64,000 bases of DNA from Squalus acanthias (lineage: Eukaryota): positions 72,604,001 to 72,668,000 of the forward strand of contig CM059432.1 of assembly GCA_030390025.1 (NCBI GenBank). The letters are read 5' to 3'. Shown piece after piece: positions 3,743-58,763 of this stretch. Under the pieces are notes generated by a model, which was not told where the DNA came from, made no database searches, and was given only the letters and a program-made list of their open reading frames with translations. Numbering within the stretch: position 1 is the first letter of the stretch; every line of letters begins with the position of its first letter. A program made the translations under genes and the position numbers.

Positions 3743-6638
3743 GTGTCAGGAAGGGACAGAAGGTATGGAGTAAAAGGTAAAGTGTTAAAAAAGGAAAAAG
3801 CAGGAACTAAGTGTCACAAAACATATTTGAAAGTTCTTTATCTGAATGCACGTAGCATTCGTAACAAAATGGACGAGTTAACGGCACAAATAACTACGTA
3901 TGGGTATGATCTTGTGGCCATTACAGAAACATGGCTGCAGGGTGACAACGACTGGGAATTAAATATGCCAGGGTATTTAACAATCAGGAAGGACAGGCAG
4001 GAAGGAAGGGGAGGTGGGGTGGCTATGTTAATAAAGGAAGGAATCACTGTAATACAGAGAAATTATATTGGGTCAAAGGATCAGGATAATGAAACAGTTT
4101 GGGTGGAGATAAGGAATAATAAGGGGGAAAAAACACTAGTGGGAGTAGTATATAGGCCTCCTAGTAGTTGCAACTCTGCTGGAAGAAGTATTAATCAGGA
4201 AATAGTTGGGGCATGTAATAAGGGAACAGCTATAATTATGGGGGATTTTAACTATCATATTAACTGGACAAATCAAATTGGGCAGGGCAGCCTTGAGGAA
4301 GAGTTTATTGAGTGTATTAAGGATGGATTTCTTGAGCAGTATGTAACTGATCCTACAAGGGGGCAAGCAACCTTGGACCTGGTCCTGTGTAATGAGTCAG
4401 GATTAATTAATAATGTCCTAGTTAAGGATCCCCTTGGAATGAGTGACCATAACATGGTTGAATTCCACATCCAATTAGAGGGTGAGAAGGTTGGTTCTCA
4501 AACAAGCGTACTGAGTTTGAATAAAGGAGTCTATGATGGTATGAGAGCGGAATTGATTAAAGTGGACTGGGAAAATAGATTAAAGGGTAAGACGGTACAT
4601 GAGCAGTGGTGTTCATTTAAGGAGTTATTTTACAACTTTCAAAAAATATATATTCCACTGAGGAAAAAAGGGTGTAAAAGAAATGACAGCCATCCATGGC
4701 TAAGTAAAGAAATTAAGGATAGTATCCGACTAAAAACAAGGACATATAAGGTAGCCAAACTTAGTGGGAGGATAGAAGATTGGGAAGTCTTCAAAAGACA
4801 GCAAAAAGTAACTAAAGGATTGATTAAGAAAGGGAAGATAGATTATGAAAATAAATTAGCAAAAAATATAAAAACAGATAGCAAGAGTTTCTATAGTTAT
4901 ATAAAAAGAAAAAGGGTGGCTAAGGCAAACGTAGGTCCCTCAGAGGATGAGACCGGGAAATTAATGGTGGGAAACATGGAGATGGCAAAAATGCTGAACA
5001 AATATTTTGTTTCAGTCTTTACGGTAGAGGACACTAAGAATATCCCAACACTGGACAAACAGGGGGCTCTAGTGGGGGAGGAGCTAAATACGATTAAAAT
5101 CACTAAGGAATTGGTATTCAGTAAAATAATGGGACTCAAGGCGGATAAATCCCCTGGACCTGATGGCTTACATCCTAGGGTCTTGAGGGAAGTGGCAGTA
5201 GGGATTGTGGATGCTTTGGTAATAATTTTCCAAAATTCCCTGGACTCAGCAAAGGTCCCGGCAGATTGGAAAACTGCTAATGTAACACCCTTATTTAAAA
5301 AGGGTAGTAGGCAGAAGGCTGGAAATTATAGACCAGTTAGCCTAACATCTGTGGTGGGTAAAATTTTGGAGTCTATTATTAAGGAGACAGTAACGGAACA
5401 TTTAGATAAACATAATTTAATAGGATAAAGTCAGCATGGCTTTATGAAGGGTAAGTCATGTCTGACAAATTTGCTTGAGTTCTTTGAGGACATAACGTAC
5501 AGGGTGGATAAAGGGGAACCAGTGGACGTAGTGTATTTAGACTTCCAGAAGGCATTCGACAAGGTGCCACATAAAAGATTATTACTCAAGATAAAAAATC
5601 ACTGGATTGGGGGTAATATTCTGGCATGGGTGGAAGATTGGTTATCTAACAGGAAGCAGAGAGTTGGGATAAATGGTTCATTCTCGGACTGGCAACCAGT
5701 AGCCAGTGGTGTTCCGCAGGGGTCGGTGCTGGGTCCCCAACTCTTTACAATCTATATTAACGATTTGGAGGAGGGGACCGAGTGTAACATATCAAAGTTT
5801 GCAGATGATACAAAGATGGGAGGGAAAGTAGAAAGTGAGGAGGACATAAAAAACCTACAAGGGGATATAGACAGGCTGGGTGAGTGGGCGGAGATTTGGC
5901 AGATGCAATACAATATTGGAAAATGTGAGGTTATGCACTTTGGCAGGAAAAATCAGAGAGCAAGTTATTATCTTAATGGCGAGAAACTGGCAAGTACTGC
6001 AGTACAAAGGGATCTGGGGGTCCTAGTGCAAGAAAATCAAAAAGTTAGCATGCAGGTGCAGCAAGTGATCAAGAAGGCCAACGGAATGTTGCCTTTTATT
6101 GCTAGGGGGATAGATTATAAAAACAGGGAGGTATTGCTGCAGTTATATAAGGTATTGGTGAGACCGCACCTTGGACTACTGCATACAGTTTTGGTGTCCA
6201 TACTTAAGAAAAGACATACTTGCTCTCGAGGCAGTACAAAGAAGGTTCACTCGGTTAATCCCGGGGATGAGGGGGTGGACATATGAGGAGAGGTTGAGTA
6301 GATTGGGATGCTACTCATTGGAGTTCAGAAGAATGAGAGGCGATCTTATTGAAACATATAAGATTGTGAAGGGGCTTGATCGGGTGGATGCGGTAAGGAT
6401 GTTCCCAAGGATGGGTGAAACTAGAACTAGGGGGCATAATCCTGGAATAAGGGGCTGCTCTTTCAAAACTAAGATGAGGAGAAACTTCTTCACTCAGAGG
6501 GTAGTAGGTCTGTGGAATTTGCTGCCCCAGGAAGCTGTGGAAGCTACATCATTAAATAAATGTAAAACAGAAATAGACAGTTTCCTAGAAGTAAAGGGAA
6601 TTAGGGGTTGCGGGGAGCGGGCAGGAAATTGGACATGA
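3743..6638 (+). pseudogene. CR1 ORF2 (APE endonuclease plus reverse transcriptase) with one stop and one frameshift
   Basis: YLNARS, ITETW, YRPP, MGDFN, LDL, SDHN; KSPGPDG, YRPVSL, GVPQGSVLGP, FADD; stop at 5426-5428, frameshift near 6170. Confidence 0.95.
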
Positions 6639-6857
6639 GGCTGAGTTCGGATCGGTCAAGGCCCTGTGGGTGGCGGAGCGGGCCCAGGGGCTGAGTGGCC
6701 AGGTCCTGCTCCTACTTCTTGTGTTCTTTAGATTTGAGGTTAGGATCAGATCAGCCATGATCTTATTGAATGGCGGAGCAGGCTCGAGGGGCCGATTGGC
6801 CTACTCCTGCTCCTATTTCTTATGTTCTTATGTATGTTCTTAAATTAGGTTGATGCT

Positions 6858-8545
6858 TAACATAAGAAACATAAGAAATAGGAGCAGGAATAGGCCACTT
6901 GACCCCTCGAGCCTGCTCCACCATTCAATAAGATCATGGCTGATCTCGGGCTCAAAGCCACTTCCCCGCCCGCTCCCCATAACCATTCACTCCCTTATCT
7001 TGCAAAAATCTGTCTATCTCCACCTTAAATGTATTTAATGACCCAGCCTCCACAGCTCTCTGGGGCAGAGAATTCCTCCTCATCACAGTTCTAAAAGGGC
7101 GACCCTTTATTCTAAAACTATGCCCCCGCGTTCTAGATTTCCCCACGAGGGGAAACATCCTCTCTGCATCTACCTTGTCGAGCCCCTTCAGTATCTTATA
7201 TGTTTCAATAAGATCACCTCTCATTCTTCTAAATTCCAATGAGTATAGGCCCAGCCTGCTCAACCTTTCCTCATAAGTCAACCCCCTCATCTCTGGAATT
7301 AACCTAGTGAATCGTCTCTGAACTGCCTCCAATGCAAGTATATCCTTCCTTAAATAAGGAGACCAAAACTGTACGCAGTACTCAAGGTGTGGTCTCACCA
7401 ATACCCTGTACAGTTGTAGCAGGACTTCCTTGCTTTTATACTCCAACCCTTTTGAAATAAAGGCCAACATTCCATTTGCCTTTTTGATTACTTGCTGTAC
7501 CTGCATGCTAACTTTTTGTGTTTCATGCACAAGGACCCCCAGGTCCCTCTGAACTATAGCATTTTGTAATCTCTCTCTATTTAAATAATAATTTGCTTTT
7601 TTATTTTTCCTGCCAAAGTGTATAACCTCGCACTTTCCCACATTATACTCCATCTGCCAAATGTTTGCCCACTCACCTAGCCTGTCTATATCCCTTTGCA
7701 GGTTTTTTGAGTTCTCTGCACAACTTGCTTTCCCACCCATCTTTGTATCATCCGCAAACTTGGCTACATTACACTCGGTCCCTTCATCCAAGTCATTAAT
7801 GTAGATTGTAAATAGTTGAGGCCCGAGCACCGATCCCTGTGGCACCCCACTAGTTACCTTTTGCCAACCGGAAAATGACCCATTTATCCCGACTCTCTGC
7901 TTTCTGTTAGTTAGCCAATTCTCTATCCGTGCTAATATATTACCCCCAATTCCGTGAGCTCTTATCTTATGCAGTAACCTTTTATGTGGCACCTTATCGA
8001 ATGCCTTCTGGAAATCCAAATACACCACATCCACTGGTTCACCTTTGTCCACCCTGCTCGTAACCTCCTCAAAGAACTCCAGCAAATTTGTTAAACATGA
8101 TTTCCCTTTCATAAAACCATGCTGACTCTGCTTGACTGCATTATGACTTTCCAAATGCCCTGCTATTGCTTCCTTAATGACGGACTCCAGCATTTTCCCA
8201 ACTGGTCTATAGTTTCCTGCTTTCTGTCTCCCTCCTTTCTTAAATAGGGGTGTTACATTTGCGGTTTCCCAATCCGCTGGGACCTCTCCAGAGTCCAGGG
8301 AATTTTGGTATATTGCAACCAGTGCATCCACTATCTCTGCAGCCACTTCTTTTAAGACCCTGGAATGCAGGCCATCTGGTCCAGGGGACTTGTCATCTTT
8401 TAGTCCCATTATGTTCCCAAGTACTATTTCCTTAGTGATAGTGATTGTTTTTAGTTCCCCCCTCCCTGGAGCCCCTTGATTATCCATTATTGGGATGTTG
8501 TTAGTGTCTTCTACCGTGAAGACAGATACAAAATATTTGTTCAGA
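6858..8545 (-). mobile_element. CR1 LINE, 5'-truncated (RT plus 3' UTR)
   Basis: ORF 6952-8562 with the RT motifs and two small in-frame deletions; CR1 tail at about 6858-6945. Confidence 0.93.
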
Positions 8546-8579
8546 ATCTTAATACCAATCAACGGAATTTAAATCATTG

Positions 8580-9765
8580 TAAGTATAACCAAAAACTTTA
8601 TGAAAAGGGAAAAAATAGAATATGAGAGAAAACTAGCAAGAAATATAAAAGCAGATTGTCAGAGCTTCCCTAAGTATGCAAAAAGGAGGAGAGTAGCAAA
8701 AGTAAACGTTGGTCCCTTAGAGGCTGAGACAGGAGAAATTATTATGGGGAATAAGGAAACAGCAGAAACATTAAACAAATATTTTGTATCTATCTTCACA
8801 GTAGAAGATACAAAAAGCAGACAAAAATAGTGGGGAACCAAGGGTCTAATGAGGGTGAGGAACTTAAAGTAATTAATATAAGTAGAGAAAAAGTACTAGA
8901 GAAACTAATGGGACTAAAAGCCGACAAATCCCCTGGACCTGATGGTCTACATCCTAGGGTTCTAAAGGAGGTGGCTGAAGAGATAGTGGATGCATTGCTT
9001 TTGATCTTCCAAAATTCCCTAGATTCCAGAACGGTCCCAGCAGATTGGAAGGTCGCAAATGTAACACCGCTATTCAAGAAAGGAGGGAGAGAGAAAACAG
9101 GGAACTACAGGCCAGTTAGCCTGACAGCAGTCGTCGGGAAAATGGGTTCGTGGGGTTGGGGGTAATATAGTAGCATGGCTAGAGGATTGGTTAATGGACA
9201 GAAAACAGAGAGTAGGGATAAACAAATCTTTTTCAGGTTGGCAGGCTGTAACTAGTGGGGTGCCGCAAGGATTGGTTGGAGCCTCAGCTATTTACAATCT
9301 ATATTAATGACCTAGATGAAGGGATAATGTATCCAAGTTTGCTGATGATACAAAGCTAGGTGGGACAATAAGATGTGAGGAGAACACAAAGAGTCTGCAA
9401 AGGGATATAGATAGACTAAGTGAGTGGGCAGTAAGGTGCCAGATGGAGGATAATGTAACGAAATGTGAGGTTATTCACTTTGGTAGGAAGAATAGAAAAA
9501 CAGAATATTTTTTAAATGGTGAGAAACTTTCAAATGTTGGTGTTCAGAGAGATTTGGGTGTCCTCGTGCAAGAAACACAGAAAGCTAGCATGCAGGTACA
9601 GCAAGCAATAAGGAAGGCAAACGTCATGTTGGCCTTTATTGCAAGGGAGTTGGAATATAAGAGTAGGGAAGTCTTGCTACAATTGTACAGAGCCTTGGTG
9701 AGACCACACCTGGAGTACTGTGCTGTGCACAGTTTTGGTCTCCTTATCTAAGGAAGGATATACGT
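8580..9765 (+). mobile_element. CR1 ORF2 fragment, decayed, with internal deletion
   Basis: KSPGPDG, YRPVSL, FADD, RPHLEYC in broken frames. Confidence 0.9.
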
Positions 9766-14099: not shown

Positions 14100-14732
14100 C
14101 TGTAGAGGTGCAGCAATGCAGTGGGCAGTAAAGGACATGAAACAGTTAACCTCAATGTACAGAGGGAATGAGTTACCTGAAATCCTGATTCATGATCGGT
14201 TTGGAGAACATTAACAATTGGACAATGCCACAAGTTCACTGCAATTATGTACAACGATAAGTTCCTGACAAGAATGGAAGAAGCATGAACACCCGAACAA
14301 TGCTATGAGCTAAGCGCCCATCACAATAAGGGGAATCACATTATCTTTCTGCTGTGTAAACAGCAGGGGAGGAGATAAGGAGTTGTCTCTGACCTTGCAG
14401 TTCTGCATAGCTCAGGAGATTGGAAGAACAAGATAACGAGATGTGAAGACCCAGCATTCCAGCCGGCTGTTAACTGAATCTACGCCTGAGGCCCAGGTGT
14501 GTGTCATAGCATGACTGGGACACTATAAGAAAGGACAACATCGAAGTGTGGGCACTGCAGTCAGGTGAAGAAGGACGGAGATCGGTCATCTCTGGATCCA
14601 GGCCTACAATCAACACCGGTAACGACCAGCCGCATGGGTAATTGTAAGTTTCAGTCAAATCATAAGGGGGTTTGTACTTGTTTGTAATAATTAAGTATCA
14701 GTTAAATCATAAAGGGGTAGCCCTTTCTTACA
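14100..14732 (+). repeat. Putative 5' LTR of the retrovirus-like element (boundaries uncertain)
   Basis: TGT start candidate at 14101, TATAAGAAA near 14524, ends TTACA directly before the gag remnant; no PBS or matching 3' LTR found. Confidence 0.3.
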
Positions 14733-17328
14733 GGTTGAGCAGACCAGACAGCTAGCAGGCGAGGCGTCGGATGCATTTGCGGATAGATTGTGGCCCGTAT
14801 AATTGAAAGCGACTGGGGGAAATCTAGTACACGCAGTTTTAATAGGGGCTCCCAGGAATCATTGGCTGAGGACCCTAGTGGCCAACAGTTTGCCGCGGAT
14901 CAGAGCAAGGGCCGAATTATGGTTTGACCCTGAGGACGATACAAATACGGAGGCGGGCGTGTTAAGGAAACGAACTTTGGCTTTCAAATCCAACAAAGGG
15001 GAGGAGAATAAACAAAAGGGGAAAGTGCACGAAATAAGAGGGAACGTCGGTAGTAAAAGGGAATGGAAGCAGGAGGGAGGTAATGCGGGCAGATCCCAGG
15101 CATGTTTCAACTGTGGGAAAACGGGACACTGGAGTAAAGAGTGCAGGTTCCCGAAAGGGGGGAAACCAGGATACGAGGGTCTCTCGGGGTCGAAACCATG
15201 GGTGACACACCCGAATGAATTCCCAACCCCCTACACGGTGGCATAGTGGTTAGCACTGGTGCCTCACAGCGCCAGAGACCCGGGTTCGAATCTGACCTCG
15301 GGTGACTGTCTGTGTGGAGTTTGCACATTCTCCCCGTGTCTGCGTGGGTTTCCTCCGGGTGCTCCGGTTTCCTCCCACAGTCCAAAAATGTGTGGGTTAG
15401 GTTGATTTGGCTATGATAAATTGACCCTTAGTGTTAGGGGGGATTAAATATGTGGGGTTATGGGGATAGGATGGGATATGTTAGGGGGAATTAAATACGT
15501 GGGGTTACGGGGGTAGGGTGGGATATGTGTACTGTGGGGATTAAAGCAGGGACAGGGTACTGGATTTGGATGATCAGCCATGATCGTATTGAATGGCGGA
15601 GCAGGCTCGACGGGCCGAATGGCCTACTCCTGCTCCTAGATTCTATGTTTCTATGTTTCTATGTTACACCATATGTTCAGACTCGATGTTCACCTGCAAT
15701 TCCTGCAATGAATATCTGGCGATATGGGCTAGGCGAGGATTCAAGTCCTCAGACGGGAGACCGTTGGTGACGGCCCCTTTGTTGGAAACTATCTTGGGTG
15801 TTACGGGCAATAACCAAGGGGATTATTACATTCAGAAGATGAAGGCGCATTCAAAAACAGAGCCCAAATGGGAAGGCAACTGGAAGGCCGATGAATTGGC
15901 AAAAAGGAGGGCCAGGGAAGGAGTACTTTGAGACCCACACCAATCTGGACAAATCACGGCCATAAAGAGTAGGGAGGGTCCACAGGAGATAAATCTGCCC
16001 CCAGATCTGACACAGGTTCAAATGCAAGATGCGGTTCTAAAAGCAGTAATTAGGAAAAGGGAAGAAGGGGAGCCAATTGAGGGACCCTTTGGAGCAGCAG
16101 ACGTAGTGGTTAAAGAGGAGATGCTGTTTAAGGGAGAAAGGTGGATCGTGCCTGTACAATATCAGGAGAAATTCATGCAACTAGTTCATGGGGGTCCGGG
16201 AGCTGGACACCCAGGACCAGAAACGACCTGGAAGAAAGTGGAGGAGGTGGGGTAGTGGCCCTATCTCAGGGGGGATGTAAAGGAGTATTGTGATAACTGC
16301 TTAGTGTGCGCCGTGAATAATCCAGACTCCCACCGAAGGAAGGTTCCATTGGGACACACTAGGAGGGTAGAGGGACCGTGGCGGTCCATACAAATAGACT
16401 TCATTGGGCCACTGCCCACCACAAAAACAGGCAATAAATATTGTCTGGTGTTGGTGGATATCTTCTCCAAGTGGGTGGAGGCCTTCCCTTGTAGAGCAGC
16501 TACAGCATTAACCACTGCTAGGATCCTGGTGAGGGAAGTGTTCTCCCGATGGGGGCTGCCCCAAATAGTGGAATCAGTTCAGGGAAGTCATTTCACTGGA
16601 CGAGTTGTGCAGACCACCCTGAAACTTCTAGGAGTACAGGGAAAATGGCATGTGGCCCATAACCCCCAATCATCGGGTATAGTAGAGAGAATGAACCGTA
16701 CCATAAAAGAGAGACTTAGGAAGGAGATAGGAGAGGACCCAAGGAGATGGGATGAGTTCCTGCCCCTAGTCCTAATGAACATCAGGGCCAGCCTCTCCAA
16801 AAGTACAGGATACTCCCCACATGAAGGGCAATGAGGACTCTGACTCATGTGTTGGTACCGAACCGGACCAAAACCCAGACTAAGGAGGTCACCCGGGACA
16901 GATTTGTGAGAGATCTACATGATACTCTAAGGAAAATGCATTGGGAAGCAGCTAATAACATGGGAAGACAGCACCAAAAGAATAAAATGCTGCTGGAACC
17001 ACGGAAAGCTCAGGAGAGGAAAGTAGGGGACCGGGTCATGGTCAGAAATTACGCAAGAGTAGGGGCATTCGAACCATTGTATAAGGGACCATATAGTATA
17101 GTGGATAAGGCAAGCTCTATGGTATATGTGGTACAACTGCCAAAACGGATAAAATGGTTCCACATTAACCAGTGTAAACTCTATGATCCCGAAGAGAGGA
17201 GAACAAAACAGACCAAGACCCAGGGAACAATCATGAGTTTAATCAGCATAAGCCTTCCTCCCATGTTGTGGGATGATGATGATGACCCAGAGGGCAGGGC
17301 GGTAAGAAGGAGTAGTTGGACACCTTGA
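14733..17328 (+). pseudogene. ERV-like gag-pol remnant: Gag C-terminus/NC, RNase H and integrase (protease and RT deleted)
   Basis: MHR-like QLAGEASDAFADRL; CFNCGKTGHWSKEC knuckle; RNase H YTICSDS...KMKAH...GNWKADELAK; integrase HGGPGAGH...CLVC, IQIDFIGPLP, GIVERMNRTIK, YKGPY. Confidence 0.9.
15234..15664 (+). mobile_element. HE1-like tRNA-derived V-SINE
   Basis: A box TGGCATAGTGG, B box GGTTCGAATC, V-domain TGTGTGGAGTTTGCACATTCTCCCCGTGTCTGCGTGGGTTT, CR1-type tail with TTCTATG repeats; TACAC on both sides. Confidence 0.92.
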
Positions 17329-17543
17329 TCCAGGGTGCCCTGGACGCCTCCTCATACACCAACCCCGAGCCGCAAGAGGCCCAAACCTCGGGGAAAGGGA
17401 AAGGGAAAGGGAACGCGGTAATTATAGCGTACAGTGTAAATATGTATATAACTTAAGCCTGACCTGTGGAGGGAAGACCTCTCACAGAGTGGTGCTATCT
17501 CCTATTTTTCTTTTGTAGAAGTGAATCGAACCAATGACGCAGG

Positions 17544-18985
17544 ATGAAGTGCACACTGTGGCTGGGCGTGTTGGTGATCCTGATTGGAGCAGGACAGGGA
17601 GATCGAGGGGACATCGAGATGTCCTTTATTTACGGGTGTGCTGGAGGAGCCGGGCCCACCATAACACAAGGGGGTACAACATGGGGTGATGACGGGGTAG
17701 TTACATACTTCCATAAGGGAAATTGGCCAGGTTGGTTAGGGTCAAATTCCACCAAGTATTCCAATCACACCGGTTACAAATTAAATATCATGGCAGTAAG
17801 GTACGGGTGAAAGAGGGCAGACGAGCTTGCCTAGAATGTTGAGGGAGCACCTCCGTGGGCTGGTGGTGGTGGTTATGAAAGACAGACGAGAATAAAAGTG
17901 ACGCATCCACGGATTGGGAAAAATTGGGGAACGACTCGCACAGGCGAATTATGGGAACTAAGGAAGGAGTGAAATTGTGTTGGGACAAGGCCATGTACCA
18001 TCATGGATTAACAACAGGCTATAAGTACATATGACAATCTTATAAATCCGTGTCAGCTACGGTCAGCCTCCAAGGAATATCCAGTTCCAATCAACTGTGG
18101 TCAGTATAACCAAACTATAATGGGGATAGTTCTCAGGATGCCAGTGATGGGTCAGTCGCAACGGCCAGTACCACTGTACCGGGTGTAAAATATTGGTGTC
18201 CTTCGAGATGGTGTATATGTGAGGCATCATGGGGCCCCTCCGTATGTGGTTAAGTGGAGGAACTCCATGACCGGCACGAATCTAGAGGGATGCCAGGGAA
18301 GAGGTGCGCATGTGGTGTTGTGCCCATACCATCTGAATCTTTTCGACCGACCGGTATGTGGGTTTAAATCTGGAGGCGGACCGCCTATCAACTGTACTAT
18401 GGAGGTGATGGCTCAGAGCCATGTTCCGCCCCAGGTTGCATATGAGGGTAACGGAACCTACGGTGTCACCACTAGTGCAAGCCGGTATAGGGTACACAAT
18501 GATACCTGGTGCCCAGTGCGTGACTCTATCTTTTGCTTCAGACCCCAGATAGAGGTTCAAGTAGCACAGGATCACACCCCAGTAAATCTCACAGTGAGTG
18601 GTACTTTACCGAACCTCCAGGAATACATATCCCATTTTGGATATGATATCCCGCCATTACCCAAACATTTGACTAAACTGGTAAAGGACGTAGAGCTTTC
18701 CCAAAAAACATAATTATACACTACAACAGAGAAATAGGAAAGCGAGGGATAAGATCGAAGAAATAGCTACCCCACCTTGGTGGAATATTGGGCTCAATAT
18801 TGCGGTTCCTCCTTGATTCGAGTCGCGTCACATGTGTTAGTGATTGTGCAATTGATTATTGTGCTGTATTTGTTGATATTGTCATGTAAGCTGAAAAGAA
18901 AGATAAAAGGGAGAAATTTGGAAAATTATTAAAAAGGGAATTCGAGATGATGAACCAAATGTATGATCTGATTAAAGAAATGTAA
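17544..18985 (+). pseudogene. Envelope (class I fusion-like) glycoprotein of the ERV-like element, disrupted
   Basis: Upstream acceptor TTTTTCTTTTGTAG (about 17505-17518); signal peptide MKCTLWLGVLVILIGAGQG; N-glycosylation sequons; Cys-rich block; TM HVLVIVQLIIVLYLLILSC plus basic tail ending at TAA 18983-18985. Confidence 0.8.
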
Positions 18986-19041
18986 GATTTGGCTAAGACC
19001 GGAAATGCATTCATAGCGGGAGGAGGATCATCAGAAGTAAT

Positions 19042-19711
19042 GGGCCGTATAGTACACACCCGTAGGGACATCGGAAATGCTGGTATCAGGCATGCCAAGC
19101 ACATGCGCTGAAAACCGGCATTTCCGATCTGTCAAGAATGCTCTTGACAGATTCGGACGCCTGCCCTAGAGAAGGGCCTCTGTGGGTGGACAGTTCGGTT
19201 TTCTGCAGAACCTCCACCCGCAGAAAACCCTTAGAAATCTTACGCCTGGTAAAAGCAGGCGTAAGGCCTGCTTTTACCAGCATAAGATTTGAAAAAAAGT
19301 AAAAAAAAAATGTTTTCACTCATTTATCATTTAAAAATACTTTAAAAAAGGTAAGTTTATTTTTAGCCCCGTAAAAAACTTTAATTATTTTTTCAAAAAA
19401 TTTAATTTTTGTTTAAAATATTTAATTTATTGTAATTTCAACTAAATTTAAATATGTGATTTTTTTTTAATTTTATTTAATGTTTTAATGTGTTTTTGGT
19501 GTGATCTCCATTCATATATTTGACAGGACTATCTGTCAAGTGTATGAAGGGAGATTTCCTTCTTTGATTGGCTCCCCATGGCCCACGTGATCCCAGGGAC
19601 GCTTGCGAACCGCATGCGCCTCTGGGATATGTGGGCTCTGCGCATTTCGAGTTTGGAGAAGCCCAGGTGCAGAAATATACGCAAGAAGCCTCCGATCGGA
19701 AAATACGGGCC
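19042..19711. mobile_element. Non-autonomous DNA transposon (MITE, probably Harbinger-type)
   Basis: Imperfect TIRs GGGCCGTAT / rc GGCCCGTAT, CpG-rich ends, AT-rich core; TSD unclear. Confidence 0.55.
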
Positions 19712-19783
19712 AAATTGTAAGGAGGAAGGGAACGGAGCCCCTTACAGCAGGGATAGCCATGATTTTGACATCTCACAAATCAG

Positions 19784-23796: not shown

Positions 23797-25915
23797 AGTC
23801 ATAGATAGAGTCATAGATTTATACAGCACAGAAAGAGAGACCCTTCAGCCCATCGTGTCTGCGCCGGCCATCAAGCCCCATCTATTCTAATCCCATTTTC
23901 CAGCACTTGGTCCGTAGCCTTCTATGCTATGGCGTTTCAAGTGCTCATCTAAATGCTTCTTGAATGTTGAGGGTTCCTGCCTCTACCACCCTTTCAGGCA
24001 GTGAGTTCCAGATTCCAACCATCCTCTGGGTGAAAAAGTTATCCTCAAATCCCCTCTAAACCTCCTGCCCCTTATCTTGAAACAATGCCCCCTGGTTATT
24101 GACCCCTCTACTAAGGGGAAAAGTTCCTTTCTATCTACCTTATCTATGCCCCTCAATTTTGTACACCTCAATCAGGTCCCCCCTCAGCCTTCTCTGCTCT
24201 AAGGAAAACAACCCCAGCCTGTCCAGTCTCTCTTCATAGCTGAAGCACTCCAGCCCAGGTAACATCCTGGTGAATCTCCTCTGCAGCCTCTCCAATGCAA
24301 TCACATCCTTCCTATAGTGTGTCGACCAGAACTGCACACAGTATTCCAGCTGTGGCCTAACTAGCGTTTTGTACAGCTCCATCATAACCTCCCTGCTCTT
24401 ATATTATTTGCCTTGGCTAATGAAGGCAAGTATCCCATGTGCCTTTTTAACCACCTTATCTACCTGTCCTGCTGCCTTCAGGGATCTATGTACATGCACA
24501 CCAAGGTCCCTCTGATCCTCTGTCCTTCCTAGGATCCTACCATTCATTGTGTATTCCCTTGCCTTGTTAGTCCTCCCAAAATGCATCACCTCACACTTTT
24601 CAGGGTTAAATTCCATTTGCCACTGTTCTGCCCATCTGACCAACCCGTCTATATTGTCCTGTAGCCTGAGACTTCCCTCCTCGCTATTTACCACTCCACC
24701 AATTTTTGTGTCATCTGCGAACTTACTGATCATATCTCCTACATTCATATCTAAATCATTAATGTACACTACAAACAGCAAAGGACCAAGCACCGATCCC
24801 TGCGGTACACCACTGGACACAGGCTTCCAGTCACAAAAACAACCTTTGACCATCATCCTCTGCCTCCTGCCACTAAGCCAATTTTGGATCCAATGTGCCA
24901 AATTGCCCTGGATCCCATGGGCTCTTACCTTCTTGACCAATCTCCCATGCGGGACTTTGTCAAAAGCCTTACTGAAGTCCATGTAGACTACATCGACTGC
25001 ACTACCCTCATCCACACACCTAATCACCCCCTCGAAAAATTCAATCAAATTGGTTAGACATGATCTCCCCCTGACAAAGCCATGCTGACTATCCTTGATT
25101 AATCCTTGCCTCTTCAAGTAGAGACTAATTCTGTCCCTCAGAATTTTTTCCAATAATTTCCCTACCACTGATGTTAGGCTCACTGGCCTGTAATTCACTG
25201 GTTTATCCCTACTACCCTTCTTGAATAATGGTACTACGCTAGCTGTCCTCCAGTCCTCTGGCACCTCCCCTGTGGCCAGAGAGGTTCTGAAAATTTGTGT
25301 CAGAGCCCCTGCAATCTCCTTCCTTGCCTCACACAGCAGCCTGGGATACATCTCGTCTGGGCCTGGGGATTTATCCACTTTTAAGCCCGCTAAAACCGCT
25401 AGTACCCCCTCCCCCTCGATACTAATTTGTTCAAGTATATCACAATCCCCCTGCCTGATTTCTATGCCTACATCGTCCTTCTCCATAGTGAACACAGATG
25501 CAAAATATTCATTTAAAACCTCACCTACAGCTTCCGGCTCAACACACAGATTGTCACTTTGGTCCCTAATGGGCCCTACTCTTTCCTTGGTTATCTTCTT
25601 GCCCTTAATATACTTATAAAACACCTTGGGATTTTCCTTTATTTTGCCCGCCAGTGTTTTTTCATGCCCCCTCTTCGCTGTCCTAATTTCTTTTTTTAAG
25701 TACCCCCCTGCACTTTCTATACTCCTCTAGGGCTTCCACTGTTTTTAGTCCTTTGTATCTTCCAAAAGCCTCCTTTTTTTTCCTAATCCATTCTTGTATA
25801 TCCCCTGACATCCAGGGTTCCCTGGGCTTGTTGGTCCCACCCTTGACCTTTACGGGAACATGTTGGCGTTGTACTCTCTCTATTTCCTTTCTGAAAGACT
25901 CCCACTGCTCTGATG
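23797..25915 (-). mobile_element. CR1 LINE, 5'-truncated
   Basis: ORF 24404-25624 with RT motifs; frameshifted C-terminus; own tail at about 23797-23880. Confidence 0.92.
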
Positions 25916-57510: not shown

Positions 57511-58330
57511 TAGAGTAGTTTGAAAGGATGGGTTCCTTATTTTTAGCACATCTTTTCTTTTGTTCTACTTGAGCTGTTGTGAAACTCCTTTGCTGATTCT
57601 TGGTTTGAGTAGTCATTCTGAGGTGGGAAGTATTGTTTTTGTTCTGCAGTCCAGCAACAATTATGCTGGTGACTCTACACCATCTCTAGGCATGCTACGA
57701 TAATGAAACAGGGCGAGATGCACTAAGACCTGATCTTTTGCTTTCTTCAGCAAATTTTTTTGCATTTGGAACAACTTTCTCAGCTTTTCCATTGGATTTT
57801 TGGGTTCTTTTGTGATGAGGTTGTGTGGTTCAAACTATTGGTTTTGCAAAATTATCTGAAACTACTTTAACTGGGAAACCATACCTAGCAAACAGCTACT
57901 TGCAAAGTGAAATCACATTTGAACTCTTGGCACTAAGTTAACTTACTGAATTCAAAACAATTTGAGAAATAGGTTAGAATTAATAAATATTGATTGTAAT
58001 GAAAGTCAAATATATCAATCCTAGCTTTCTGCGTCAGTCTACTTGGAATGTCATATACATTGGCCGCGAATTTGCCGGCGCTCAGAGGGCGGGTTTGGAG
58101 GCGGGTCGGGAGTTAAAATCCAAATGATTGCCGGTGGATTACGAACCCGCCACCATCCCAGCTTCACGCAAATTTGCAAAGTGTCGGGTCTGCGAGTCCC
58201 GATCTGACCCGACACCAAACGACGGGAGAGGCACTTAAGGCAGTTAACAGCTTGTTAACTGCCTAGATAATGCTTTTTTAACTGGCTCTTCCTATTTTAA
58301 GAAATTTTCAGCGTGTTGCCTGTCGTGCAA

Positions 58331-58763
58331 CACGGTGGCATAGTGGTTAGCACTGGTGCCTCACAGCGCCAGAGACCCGGGTTCGAATCTGACCTCGGGT
58401 GACTGTCTGTGTGGAGTTTGCACATTCTCCCTGTGTCTGCGTGGGTTTCCTCCGGGTGCTCCGGTTTCCTCCCACAGTCCAAAAATGTGTGGGTTAGGTT
58501 GATTTGGCTATGATAAATTGACCCTTAGTGTTAGGGGGGATTAAATATGTGGGGTTATGGGGATAGGATGGGATATGTTAGGGGGAATTAAATACGTGGG
58601 GTTACGGGGGTAGGGTGGGATATGTGTACTGTGGGGATTAAAGCAGGGACAGGGTACTGGATTTGGATGATCAGCCATGATCGTATTGAATGGCGGAGCA
58701 GGCTCGACGGGCCGAATGGCCTACTCCTGCTCCTAGATTCTTTCTATGTCTATGTTTCTATGT
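58331..58763 (+). mobile_element. HE1-like V-SINE inside Harbinger-2
   Basis: Near-identical to 15234-15664. Confidence 0.92.

Follow-up and report, generated by a model that had tools for sequence, protein, structure and literature searches.

A dead provirus in the genome of Squalus acanthias, probably of a SnRV-like retrovirus family, and the predicted F-like envelope protein of its relatives

A degraded provirus in a shark genome

We have analyzed a stretch of 64,000 nucleotides of Squalus acanthias (assembly GCA_030390025.1, contig CM059432.1, positions 72,604,001 to 72,668,000), from here on the window. It contains the remains of a provirus, with the following features (window positions; + is the forward strand):

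14129-19746, +: whole provirus, flanked by two GCAG copies
14125..14128, +: left target-site duplication GCAG, 4 bp; repeated directly behind the 3' LTR, at 19747-19750
14129..14712, +: 5' LTR remnant, 83-94% to the two LTRs of L023/L024
14713..15203, +: 3' portion of gag, carrying one CCHC zinc knuckle, 76% to Gag residues 319-483 of another copy
15204..15232, +: start of the RNase H remnant; the translation runs into the RNase H motif of another copy's Pol
15233..15664, +: short interspersed repeat, a later insertion in RNase H; pol homology is back at 15665
15665..17337, +: pol remnant with the rest of RNase H and the integrase (zinc finger, core and C-terminal domain), Pfam rve E 5.3e-13
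17497..17518, +: candidate env splice acceptor, pyrimidine tract and AG (17517-17518), kept in L003 and L004
17544..17600, +: env start (ATG at 17544) and signal-peptide-like stretch, mean hydropathy 1.48; same layout in other copies
17800..17985, +: broken remnant of the probable Ig-like head domain of Env, by the matching stretch of a natural copy
17985..17989, +: env deletion junction, by blastn against eight of eight copies compared and a tblastn map
17990..18830, +: C-terminal half of the F-like ectodomain with the second heptad region, 68% to residues 339-654 of a natural copy
18831..18929, +: TM anchor (18831-18887, 19 residues of hydropathy 2.7), then a short cytoplasmic tail of basic character
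19042..19715, no strand assigned: unrelated 674-nt sequence in place of most of the 3' LTR; homology to other copies ends at 19041
19716..19746, +: last ~30 nt of the 3' LTR with its CA terminus, matching the LTR ends of L022, L023 and L024

The 5' LTR remnant has at least 46 matches in its own genome (40 of 216 candidates were scored), and 4-bp duplications were also found around other copies, with four of four letters shared in L023/L024 and three of four in L017/L018. The zinc knuckle is located at 15103-15144 (Pfam zf-CCHC, E 1.7e-07), in agreement with the original prediction, which had been made from the letters alone and had proposed a Gag with a CCHC box. The pol remnant also matches the Pfam H2C2 and SH3-like models, with 73-82% to Pol of another copy, and is interrupted by stops and one frameshift. 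The env motifs named in that prediction are all present as well. The putative splice acceptor is consensus-like, the signal-like stretch is hydrophobic, and the anchor with its basic tail is found where expected. In the cysteine block, which extends from 18282 (LEGC) to about 18467 inside the ectodomain remnant, the spacings of six and eleven residues had been given correctly, and the third one is of 10 residues and not 9.

One deletion has taken away the 3' end of the 5' LTR together with the PBS and the greater part of gag, and a second one has fused the end of gag to RNase H at about 15203/15204, with the loss of protease, RT and tether. At the env junction 843-870 nt are missing relative to all eight genomic copies compared, taking away the rest of the head, the F2-like part, the furin site, the fusion peptide and the first heptad repeat. 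The remaining half of the ectodomain is broken by stops and a frameshift. The internal deletion of env, the gag/RNase H deletion and the several stops and frameshifts had been overlooked in the first reading of the sequence. The window copy is thus an ordinary dead relic, incapable of any step of the viral cycle, and the value of the finding lies in its family.

The repeat inserted in RNase H, presumably a SINE, has a tail in common with the LINE ends within the window. Its positions 15233-15532 are 100% identical over 300 nt to 58330-58629, 43 kb apart, and the pair points either to a family that is still very young or to local copying. LINE reverse-transcriptase fragments, which we take to be CR1-like, lie densely on both strands in the remainder of the window (6952-8568, 24404-25726 and others). 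As for the 674-nt sequence close to the 3' end, it contains a 57-nt inverted repeat (19235-19290), and a second copy was not found within the window.

Organization of the family

A genome search with positions 17500-19000 gave at least 58 matches besides the window, at 71-90% identity (40 of 841 candidates were scored), that fall in two groups, one close (~89%) and one distant (~78%), with different LTRs. Because of these 58 matches in its own genome and 45 protein relatives, the pattern of the env region is not due to chance. The original prediction had advised to look for full-length copies, and other genomic copies did supply RT, PBS and LTRs. The organization of the family was read from seven other copies, the sequence of which was read in pieces, and is LTR, PBS, gag, in-frame stop, pro, RT, tether, RNase H, integrase, env and LTR. 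Their gag has one CCHC, the protease the motif DTGA and the RT the retroviral motif LPQG together with YVDD. The tether and second RNase H align with MLV and foamy RT over residues 1-587, i.e., this is a dual RNase H. Between env and the 3' LTR there are less than 200 nt, including a purine tract, and no accessory genes were found in the family. The PBS is complementary to the 3' end of the tRNA-Arg(TCG) genes of the same genome, indicating a tRNA-Arg(UCG) primer. Two LTR pairs differed at 31 of 673 and 70 of 934 ungapped columns, which at the shark rate assumed in PMC4422223 would correspond to about 105 and 170 million years, ages that are uncertain tenfold because the mammalian rate gives a tenth of them.

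A far more abundant sister family is present in the same genome (sampled by the three copies L088-L090, contig C1), with 71-72% identity in Pol, 49-56% in Env and 34-43% in Gag, and with the same RT motif. The combined pattern of LTR end and PBS matched 3155 times in the genome and spans several families; two PBS variants recur among the matches listed. The tRNA-Arg 3' end by itself has 422 matches genome-wide, and in contig C26 (38.9-42.2 Mb) there are long tandem arrays with a 1.62-kb period that carry tRNA-Arg(TCG) and tRNA-Ser(GCT) genes. We also observed that the stretch from the start of env to its core is longer in the close copies L003, L004 and L002 (a gap of ~1.3-1.8 kb) than in L005-L011, which belong to the distant group.

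The named relatives of Env come from sharks (Chiloscyllium punctatum and Scyliorhinus torazame carry some of them), a ray and frogs, and the best relatives of Pol are frog and coelacanth proteins (39-44%). The frog pol and env relatives are here assumed to be parts of the same elements. Many of the frog relatives are copies of the same length, 675-677 aa, in clusters P0081 (Mantella aurantiaca) and P0094 (Bombina bombina), which points to the lineage having been active recently in frogs.

The gag-pol junction

At the gag stop, UGA-CUAG was found in 59 of 66 genomic junction matches, and UGA in 64 of them. As these copies are close kin, their agreement by itself says no more than what the ancestral state was. 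In the sister family, with a much diverged Gag, the same UGA-CUAG is present in two of the three copies fetched (the reading of the third did not extend to the junction). Between the two families 10 of 10 letters are kept around the stop, compared with 8 of the 27 letters directly before it and 21 of the 30 directly after it. The conservation of CUAG may be partly coding, because it also encodes the first residue on the protease side. Downstream of the stop, RNA structure above that of shuffled sequences was found in none of four sequences (z -0.5 to +1.3). UGACUAG is a known readthrough context in alphaviruses and human genes. For retroviruses, the contexts given in the accessible part of a recent account are UAGGGA, UAGGAU, UAGGGC, UGAAGA, UGACGA and UGAAGU (PMC13517186), and a literature search, by title, returned no retroviral gag junction with UGACUAG.

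Predicted structure of the envelope protein

The family Env is about 800 aa long. In the natural copies it starts with a signal peptide and an N-terminal head, followed by a segment of beta strands and helix, an R-x-K/R-R site and a fusion-peptide-like stretch, and continues with a long heptad region, a cysteine-rich beta region, a second heptad region, a TM anchor and a cytoplasmic tail of about 25 residues or fewer. The 45 relatives were obtained with phmmer, and 32 sequences were aligned and used for structure prediction; a later search with the Env profile gave four matches, three of them new close relatives. Sequence searches of Pfam and PDB, with single sequences or with the profile, gave nothing significant and no match to F proteins.

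A natural copy was modelled with AlphaFold (pLDDT 71, pTM 0.50). With Foldseek, as had been suggested in the original prediction, the best match in PDB was hPIV3 F (E 2.7e-11), and there were 244 matches at E<=0.001, those listed being all paramyxovirus or pneumovirus F. In VIA-align the top 16 rows were exclusively F or foamy Env, both foamy structures included, with NDV F at Z 12.3 (rmsd 18.8, 373 aligned) and foamy Env 8rm0 at Z 8.6 (rmsd 5.8, 266 aligned; range for the foamy structures 8.4-8.6). Matches to coiled coils appeared lower, with Z up to 6.1. The fold matches in BFVD were baculovirus F, lispivirus glycoproteins, WEHV-1, feline foamy virus and WDSV Env; the Env of SnRV was absent among the 50 matches listed. 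ESM features pointed in the same direction (Baculo_F/Fusion_gly, 0.92-0.93). The ISD and CX6CC motifs, both found in a gamma-type control, were absent from the ectodomain of six of six family members (one CX6CC-like match is located in a membrane anchor), which speaks against a gamma-type Env, as the original prediction had suggested.

The F core to which both subunits contribute, by which class Ib with F, foamy Env and spike is recognized, is seen in the model. We consider very probable, from the predicted fold, that the family Env is an F-like class I fusogen of class Ib. The furin motif and the heptads are present in the Env of other copies; trimer formation, cleavage and fusion are predictions. 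The head of the natural copy scored 0.93-0.95 for V-set/I-set Ig clusters in the ESM Atlas, and its Pfam Ig matches were under the cut-off (E 0.07-0.6), so that an Ig-like domain is probable at the N-terminus of Env, ahead of the F core. Weak Pfam V-set signals were also seen in the front of SnRV Env (record positions 6131-6550, E 0.32) and in the relative P0083 (E 0.045). The Ig-like head may be common to the whole group, SnRV included.

Envelope proteins of other retroviruses

The profile of the family Env aligned with that of other retroviruses. In HHalign the highest value was that of WDSV Env, 96.5% (in a separate comparison, 27.7 bits over profile positions 38-558), with some 500 residues aligned (record positions 5962-9648, in a record that we take to be WDSV), followed by SnRV Env (89.7%, 287 columns), which reached 15.2 bits against a maximum of 1.8 in 500 shuffles. 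Foamy Env gave 34.9%, a local match located precisely on the cysteine block that the original prediction had compared to the foamy TM and to F proteins; 12 of 14 foamy Env ORFs aligned there with more than 3 bits. None of the gamma-type ectodomains scored. A core-only profile changes this order (foamy 12.7-15.0 bits, WDSV 8.8, SnRV 5.2, with shuffle maxima of 1.4-8.5), so that the ranking of the known Envs varies with the method. In BFVD the walleye proteins of WDSV and WEHV-1 matched the family model at E 9e-09 and 6e-06. A model of SnRV Env (pLDDT 68) also matched F proteins in Foldseek (best E 5e-08); it is not independent, because it was folded on the alignment of the shark family, and in VIA-align its foamy and F matches (Z 6.4-6.9) were level with plain coiled coils.

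By sequence comparison, the Env of SnRV appears to be a remote homologue of the family Env. Since the profile aligns with both SnRV and WDSV Env, the F-type Env would not be confined to foamy viruses and lokiretroviruses. In the published texts accessible to us, F-like Env is described for lokiretroviruses (PMC7947760), for foamy viruses, as class Ib (PMC11468914), and for errantiviruses (10.1101/2023.10.26.564294), and the walleye Env is called "a distinct Env lacking gamma-type hallmarks", its fold not being given (PMC9967133). Our literature search, to which subscription journals were mostly closed, found no statement of an F-type Env in SnRV, SnRV-like ERVs or walleye retroviruses; such a statement is likewise absent from the accessible portions of PMC12583693, PMC13709493, PMC12456133, PMC5512871 and 10.1101/2024.03.17.585361.

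Relationship to known retroviruses

Within the reference set used, which covered neither ERV-L/S nor lokiretroviruses, RT similarity puts SnRV closest among the named viruses, with 41% identity and 196 bits, compared with 31-35% for five foamy viruses, 36% for three gammaretroviruses and 32% for WDSV (115-167 bits for the foamy, gamma and epsilon-like references). The PBS of SnRV matches a tRNA-Arg(ACG) gene, and SnRV resembles the shark family in its single CCHC and in a gag stop that is in frame. The scores of integrase and tether give SnRV no advantage. Integrase scored 110 bits with SnRV, 134 with WDSV and up to 142 with Gypsy elements, and the tether 21 with SnRV and up to 59 with Gypsy. 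The Gag capsid gave no significant match among 107 viral ORFs, the Gag of SnRV included. A direct RT search of viral contigs had no match, and reference sequences were gathered via alignment and motif scans.

In the RT-core tree, built without the outgroup (six Gypsy rows dropped), the shark/frog/coelacanth group is found together with SnRV, the foamy viruses and one further row outside class I and class II (98/96), and SnRV is its sister with weak support (81/74). The best tree of RT, tether and RNase H, built without Gypsy or class II rows, placed the group with the foamy viruses (62/99.7), SnRV as sister not being rejected (p-AU 0.245). When Gypsy outgroups were used they adjoined the group in two trees (98/95; 68/98, the latter without class II rows), and a third tree left the base open; in the topology tests, from which nine redundant or long rows were dropped, none of the placements compared was rejected, be it a single clade (p-AU 0.28) or a clade with SnRV (p-AU 0.25). 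The integrase tree was built without L035, CGIN1 and lokiretroviruses. No tree included a lokiretrovirus sequence, and these were compared by eye with excerpts of the supplement of PMC7947760.

Taken together, these data incline us, by a modest margin over the contrary, to file the element as a dead copy of a class III family, SnRV-like, in clade Huo. The original prediction had spoken of a spuma-related or lokiretrovirus-like lineage. Spuma-related is fair in the broad class III sense; the foamy features fail and the RT motif of lokiretroviruses is absent. It had also considered the lineage possibly undescribed in this host group. Both the host group and the SnRV-like clade, the closest one, are already known, SnRV-like ERVs having been described from the chimaera Callorhinchus (CmiERV lineage I, PMC4422223) and, according to the accessible sections of other reports, from coelacanth, amphibians and fish (PMC4977317, PMC6001957, PMC12193657). 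Coelacanth and amphibians are among the hosts so reported in PMC4977317. A text search of the CmiERV supplement (PMC4422223) did not find the PBS and junction motifs, in a text where line breaks may hide matches. That a described family carries the same env is partly the case, because SnRV Env appears to be a remote homologue.

Proposed mechanism and alternative explanations

Our favored explanation, somewhat ahead of all others combined, takes the element for an old copy, now dead, of a simple ERV family in the SnRV-like group (class III, clade Huo), which has relatives in sharks, rays, frogs and coelacanth. The ancestral virus most likely worked as follows. Reverse transcription was primed by host tRNA-Arg(UCG), and integration generated a 4-bp duplication. 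Gag-Pro-Pol would be made by ribosomal readthrough at the in-frame UGA-CUAG; the junction was observed, and readthrough there is likely. Env would be translated from a spliced RNA, enter the ER by its signal peptide and be cut at R-x-K/R-R into two chains. Judging from the predicted fold and from the behavior of related fusogens, fusion would most probably follow the class Ib route of paramyxovirus F and foamy Env. Once freed, the fusion peptide would insert, the first heptad would extend into a coiled coil of three chains and the second one would fold back. Attachment might take place through the probable N-terminal Ig-like head, a role that is a guess with slightly less than even chances.

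The main competitor is a separate early-branching lineage or grade of shark, frog and coelacanth elements, placed between lokiretroviruses and all other retroviruses, that has kept ancestral traits (F-type Env, Gypsy/Loki-like tether, DCG motif before RT) and is merely lumped with SnRV. The Gypsy outgroups join beside or inside the group, the tether scores higher with some Gypsy RNase H than with any named retrovirus, the end of the tether and the DCG motif resemble lokiretrovirus Pol by eye in the supplement excerpts (PMC7947760), and the SnRV-containing clade is called a possibly ancestral branch in the accessible text of PMC4977317. However, the outgroup branch is long (1.1-1.5) and the rows short, a setting prone to false joins, the topology tests leave one clade, with or without SnRV, unrejected, and the DCG motif is also present in SnRV. 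We consider this early branching unlikely. Less probable still is a foamy-like ERV of the kind described from shark and frog (CmiFLERV/XtrFLERV, excerpts of PMC5512871), with an Env inherited from a foamy ancestor. Its shark and frog members, known there from pol fragments, cluster, as would fit our shark and frog hosts; the best RT-RNase H tree and the local alignment of the cysteine block would also agree. The CCHC, the in-frame gag stop before pro, the Arg primer, the signal peptide in place of a long leader and the short distance from env to the 3' LTR all speak against it, the RT is closer to SnRV than to foamy viruses, and published fish FLERV RTs differ by eye. A foamy virus of cartilaginous fish was reportedly described in 2023, and the same low probability covers a family of that kind.

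Very improbable is also the reading as a lokiretrovirus, which would be the first from a cartilaginous fish. The Env layout with signal peptide and RXKR site and the dual RNase H are as in the accessible text of PMC7947760, the frog and coelacanth hosts overlap, and NCBI names the Pol relatives "NYNRIN-like", the Loki integrase being near CGIN1. Nevertheless, the RT has LPQG where all the Loki passages compared by eye have PFG, and as far as that text goes none of six chondrichthyan genomes had lokiretroviruses, although relatives of the family Env occur in C. punctatum and S. torazame, two of the species surveyed. Even more remote is an artefactual F-like match, produced by long helices and a model of low confidence. 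The pTM, the TM-scores of 0.25-0.41, the high rmsd and the missing Pfam or PDB sequence match to F could be read in that way. But the matches cover model residues 6-413 with the beta domains included, Foldseek, VIA-align and ESM features concur, coiled coils rank lower, and the high rmsd would fit a mixed pre- and post-fusion placement of helices in a monomer model. The SnRV-like family with a predicted class Ib Env stays as our preferred reading.

Significance

The origin of retroviral env is left open, with four scenarios and none chosen, in the accessible text of PMC7947760; orthoretroviral Env is class Ia, and the F-like fold of foamy Env has been used to support the split between subfamilies (PMC11468914, accessible part). 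If SnRV, WDSV/WEHV and the shark-frog ERVs carry class Ib, the fold would occur on several deep branches, two of them filed under Orthoretrovirinae, favoring either an F-type ancestor or a repeated exchange of env among aquatic retroviruses. We advance only tentatively, and as a joint claim that is more doubtful than not, that the F-type Env is ancestral to Retroviridae and common to lokiretroviruses, foamy viruses, SnRV, walleye viruses and the shark/frog/coelacanth lineage, and that UGA-CUAG readthrough for Gag-Pol is first noted here. If true, this lineage may be among the earliest retroviral branches and the first retrovirus group noted with such a signal, Envs of the gamma and beta types would have come in later as replacements, and the division into classes Ia and Ib would not coincide with that into Ortho- and Spumaretrovirinae. 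The apparent presence of the same fusogen fold in SnRV and walleye retroviruses makes an F-type ancestral envelope a testable idea, and these two are cultured fish viruses amenable to structural work.

Comparison with known systems

SnRV and the SnRV-like ERVs share with the family the RT similarity, a tRNA-Arg primer, a single CCHC, a gag stop in frame with pro, the FATH..DCG motif before RT and a remotely homologous Env. They differ in the gag stop (UAG-GGC in SnRV, UGA-CUAG in the family), in the isoacceptor (ACG versus UCG) and in a Gag without detectable capsid match to the 540-620 aa Gag of the family. SnRV Env is a frame of 1134 codons with a long tail, of 136 residues according to the accessible part of PMC12193657, which also describes accessory ORFs; the shark family has neither.

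Foamy viruses have a Gag without Cys-His box and express Pol apart from Gag, and an ORF with CCHC was listed in none of 14 foamy records. Their Env (PDB 8RM0/8RM1) shares the predicted F core and the local match on the cysteine block, but it has a long leader with a first TM helix, which the family lacks, and a large receptor-binding domain between the subunits, where the family has instead the probable N-terminal Ig-like head. The bel genes and the mostly tRNA-Lys primer of Spumaretrovirinae (PMC11468914, PMC5512871, in the parts accessible) contrast with a family without bel genes and with an Arg primer. The CCHC, the in-frame gag-UGA-pro, the ordinary signal peptide, the lack of accessory genes and the primer rule out the identity as a foamy virus.

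Lokiretroviruses share the F-like Env layout, the dual RNase H and, by eye, a similar tether. They differ by PFG before the catalytic YxDD of RT and, in the accessible text of PMC7947760, have an integrase close to CGIN1, an smc gene in some members and no report from six chondrichthyan genomes; by the RT motif, compared by eye, the family is probably not one of them. The Env of the walleye epsilonretroviruses (WDSV, WEHV-1) aligns, but it is much longer and comes with a class I Pol (RT 32%). Finally, paramyxovirus and pneumovirus F, baculovirus F and the F-type Env of errantiviruses are the best structural matches, at 10-15% identity and in different virus orders. Errantiviruses are Ty3/Gypsy elements of invertebrates, an identity that for the shark family is ruled out by the tether with second RNase H and the LPQG motif of its RT.
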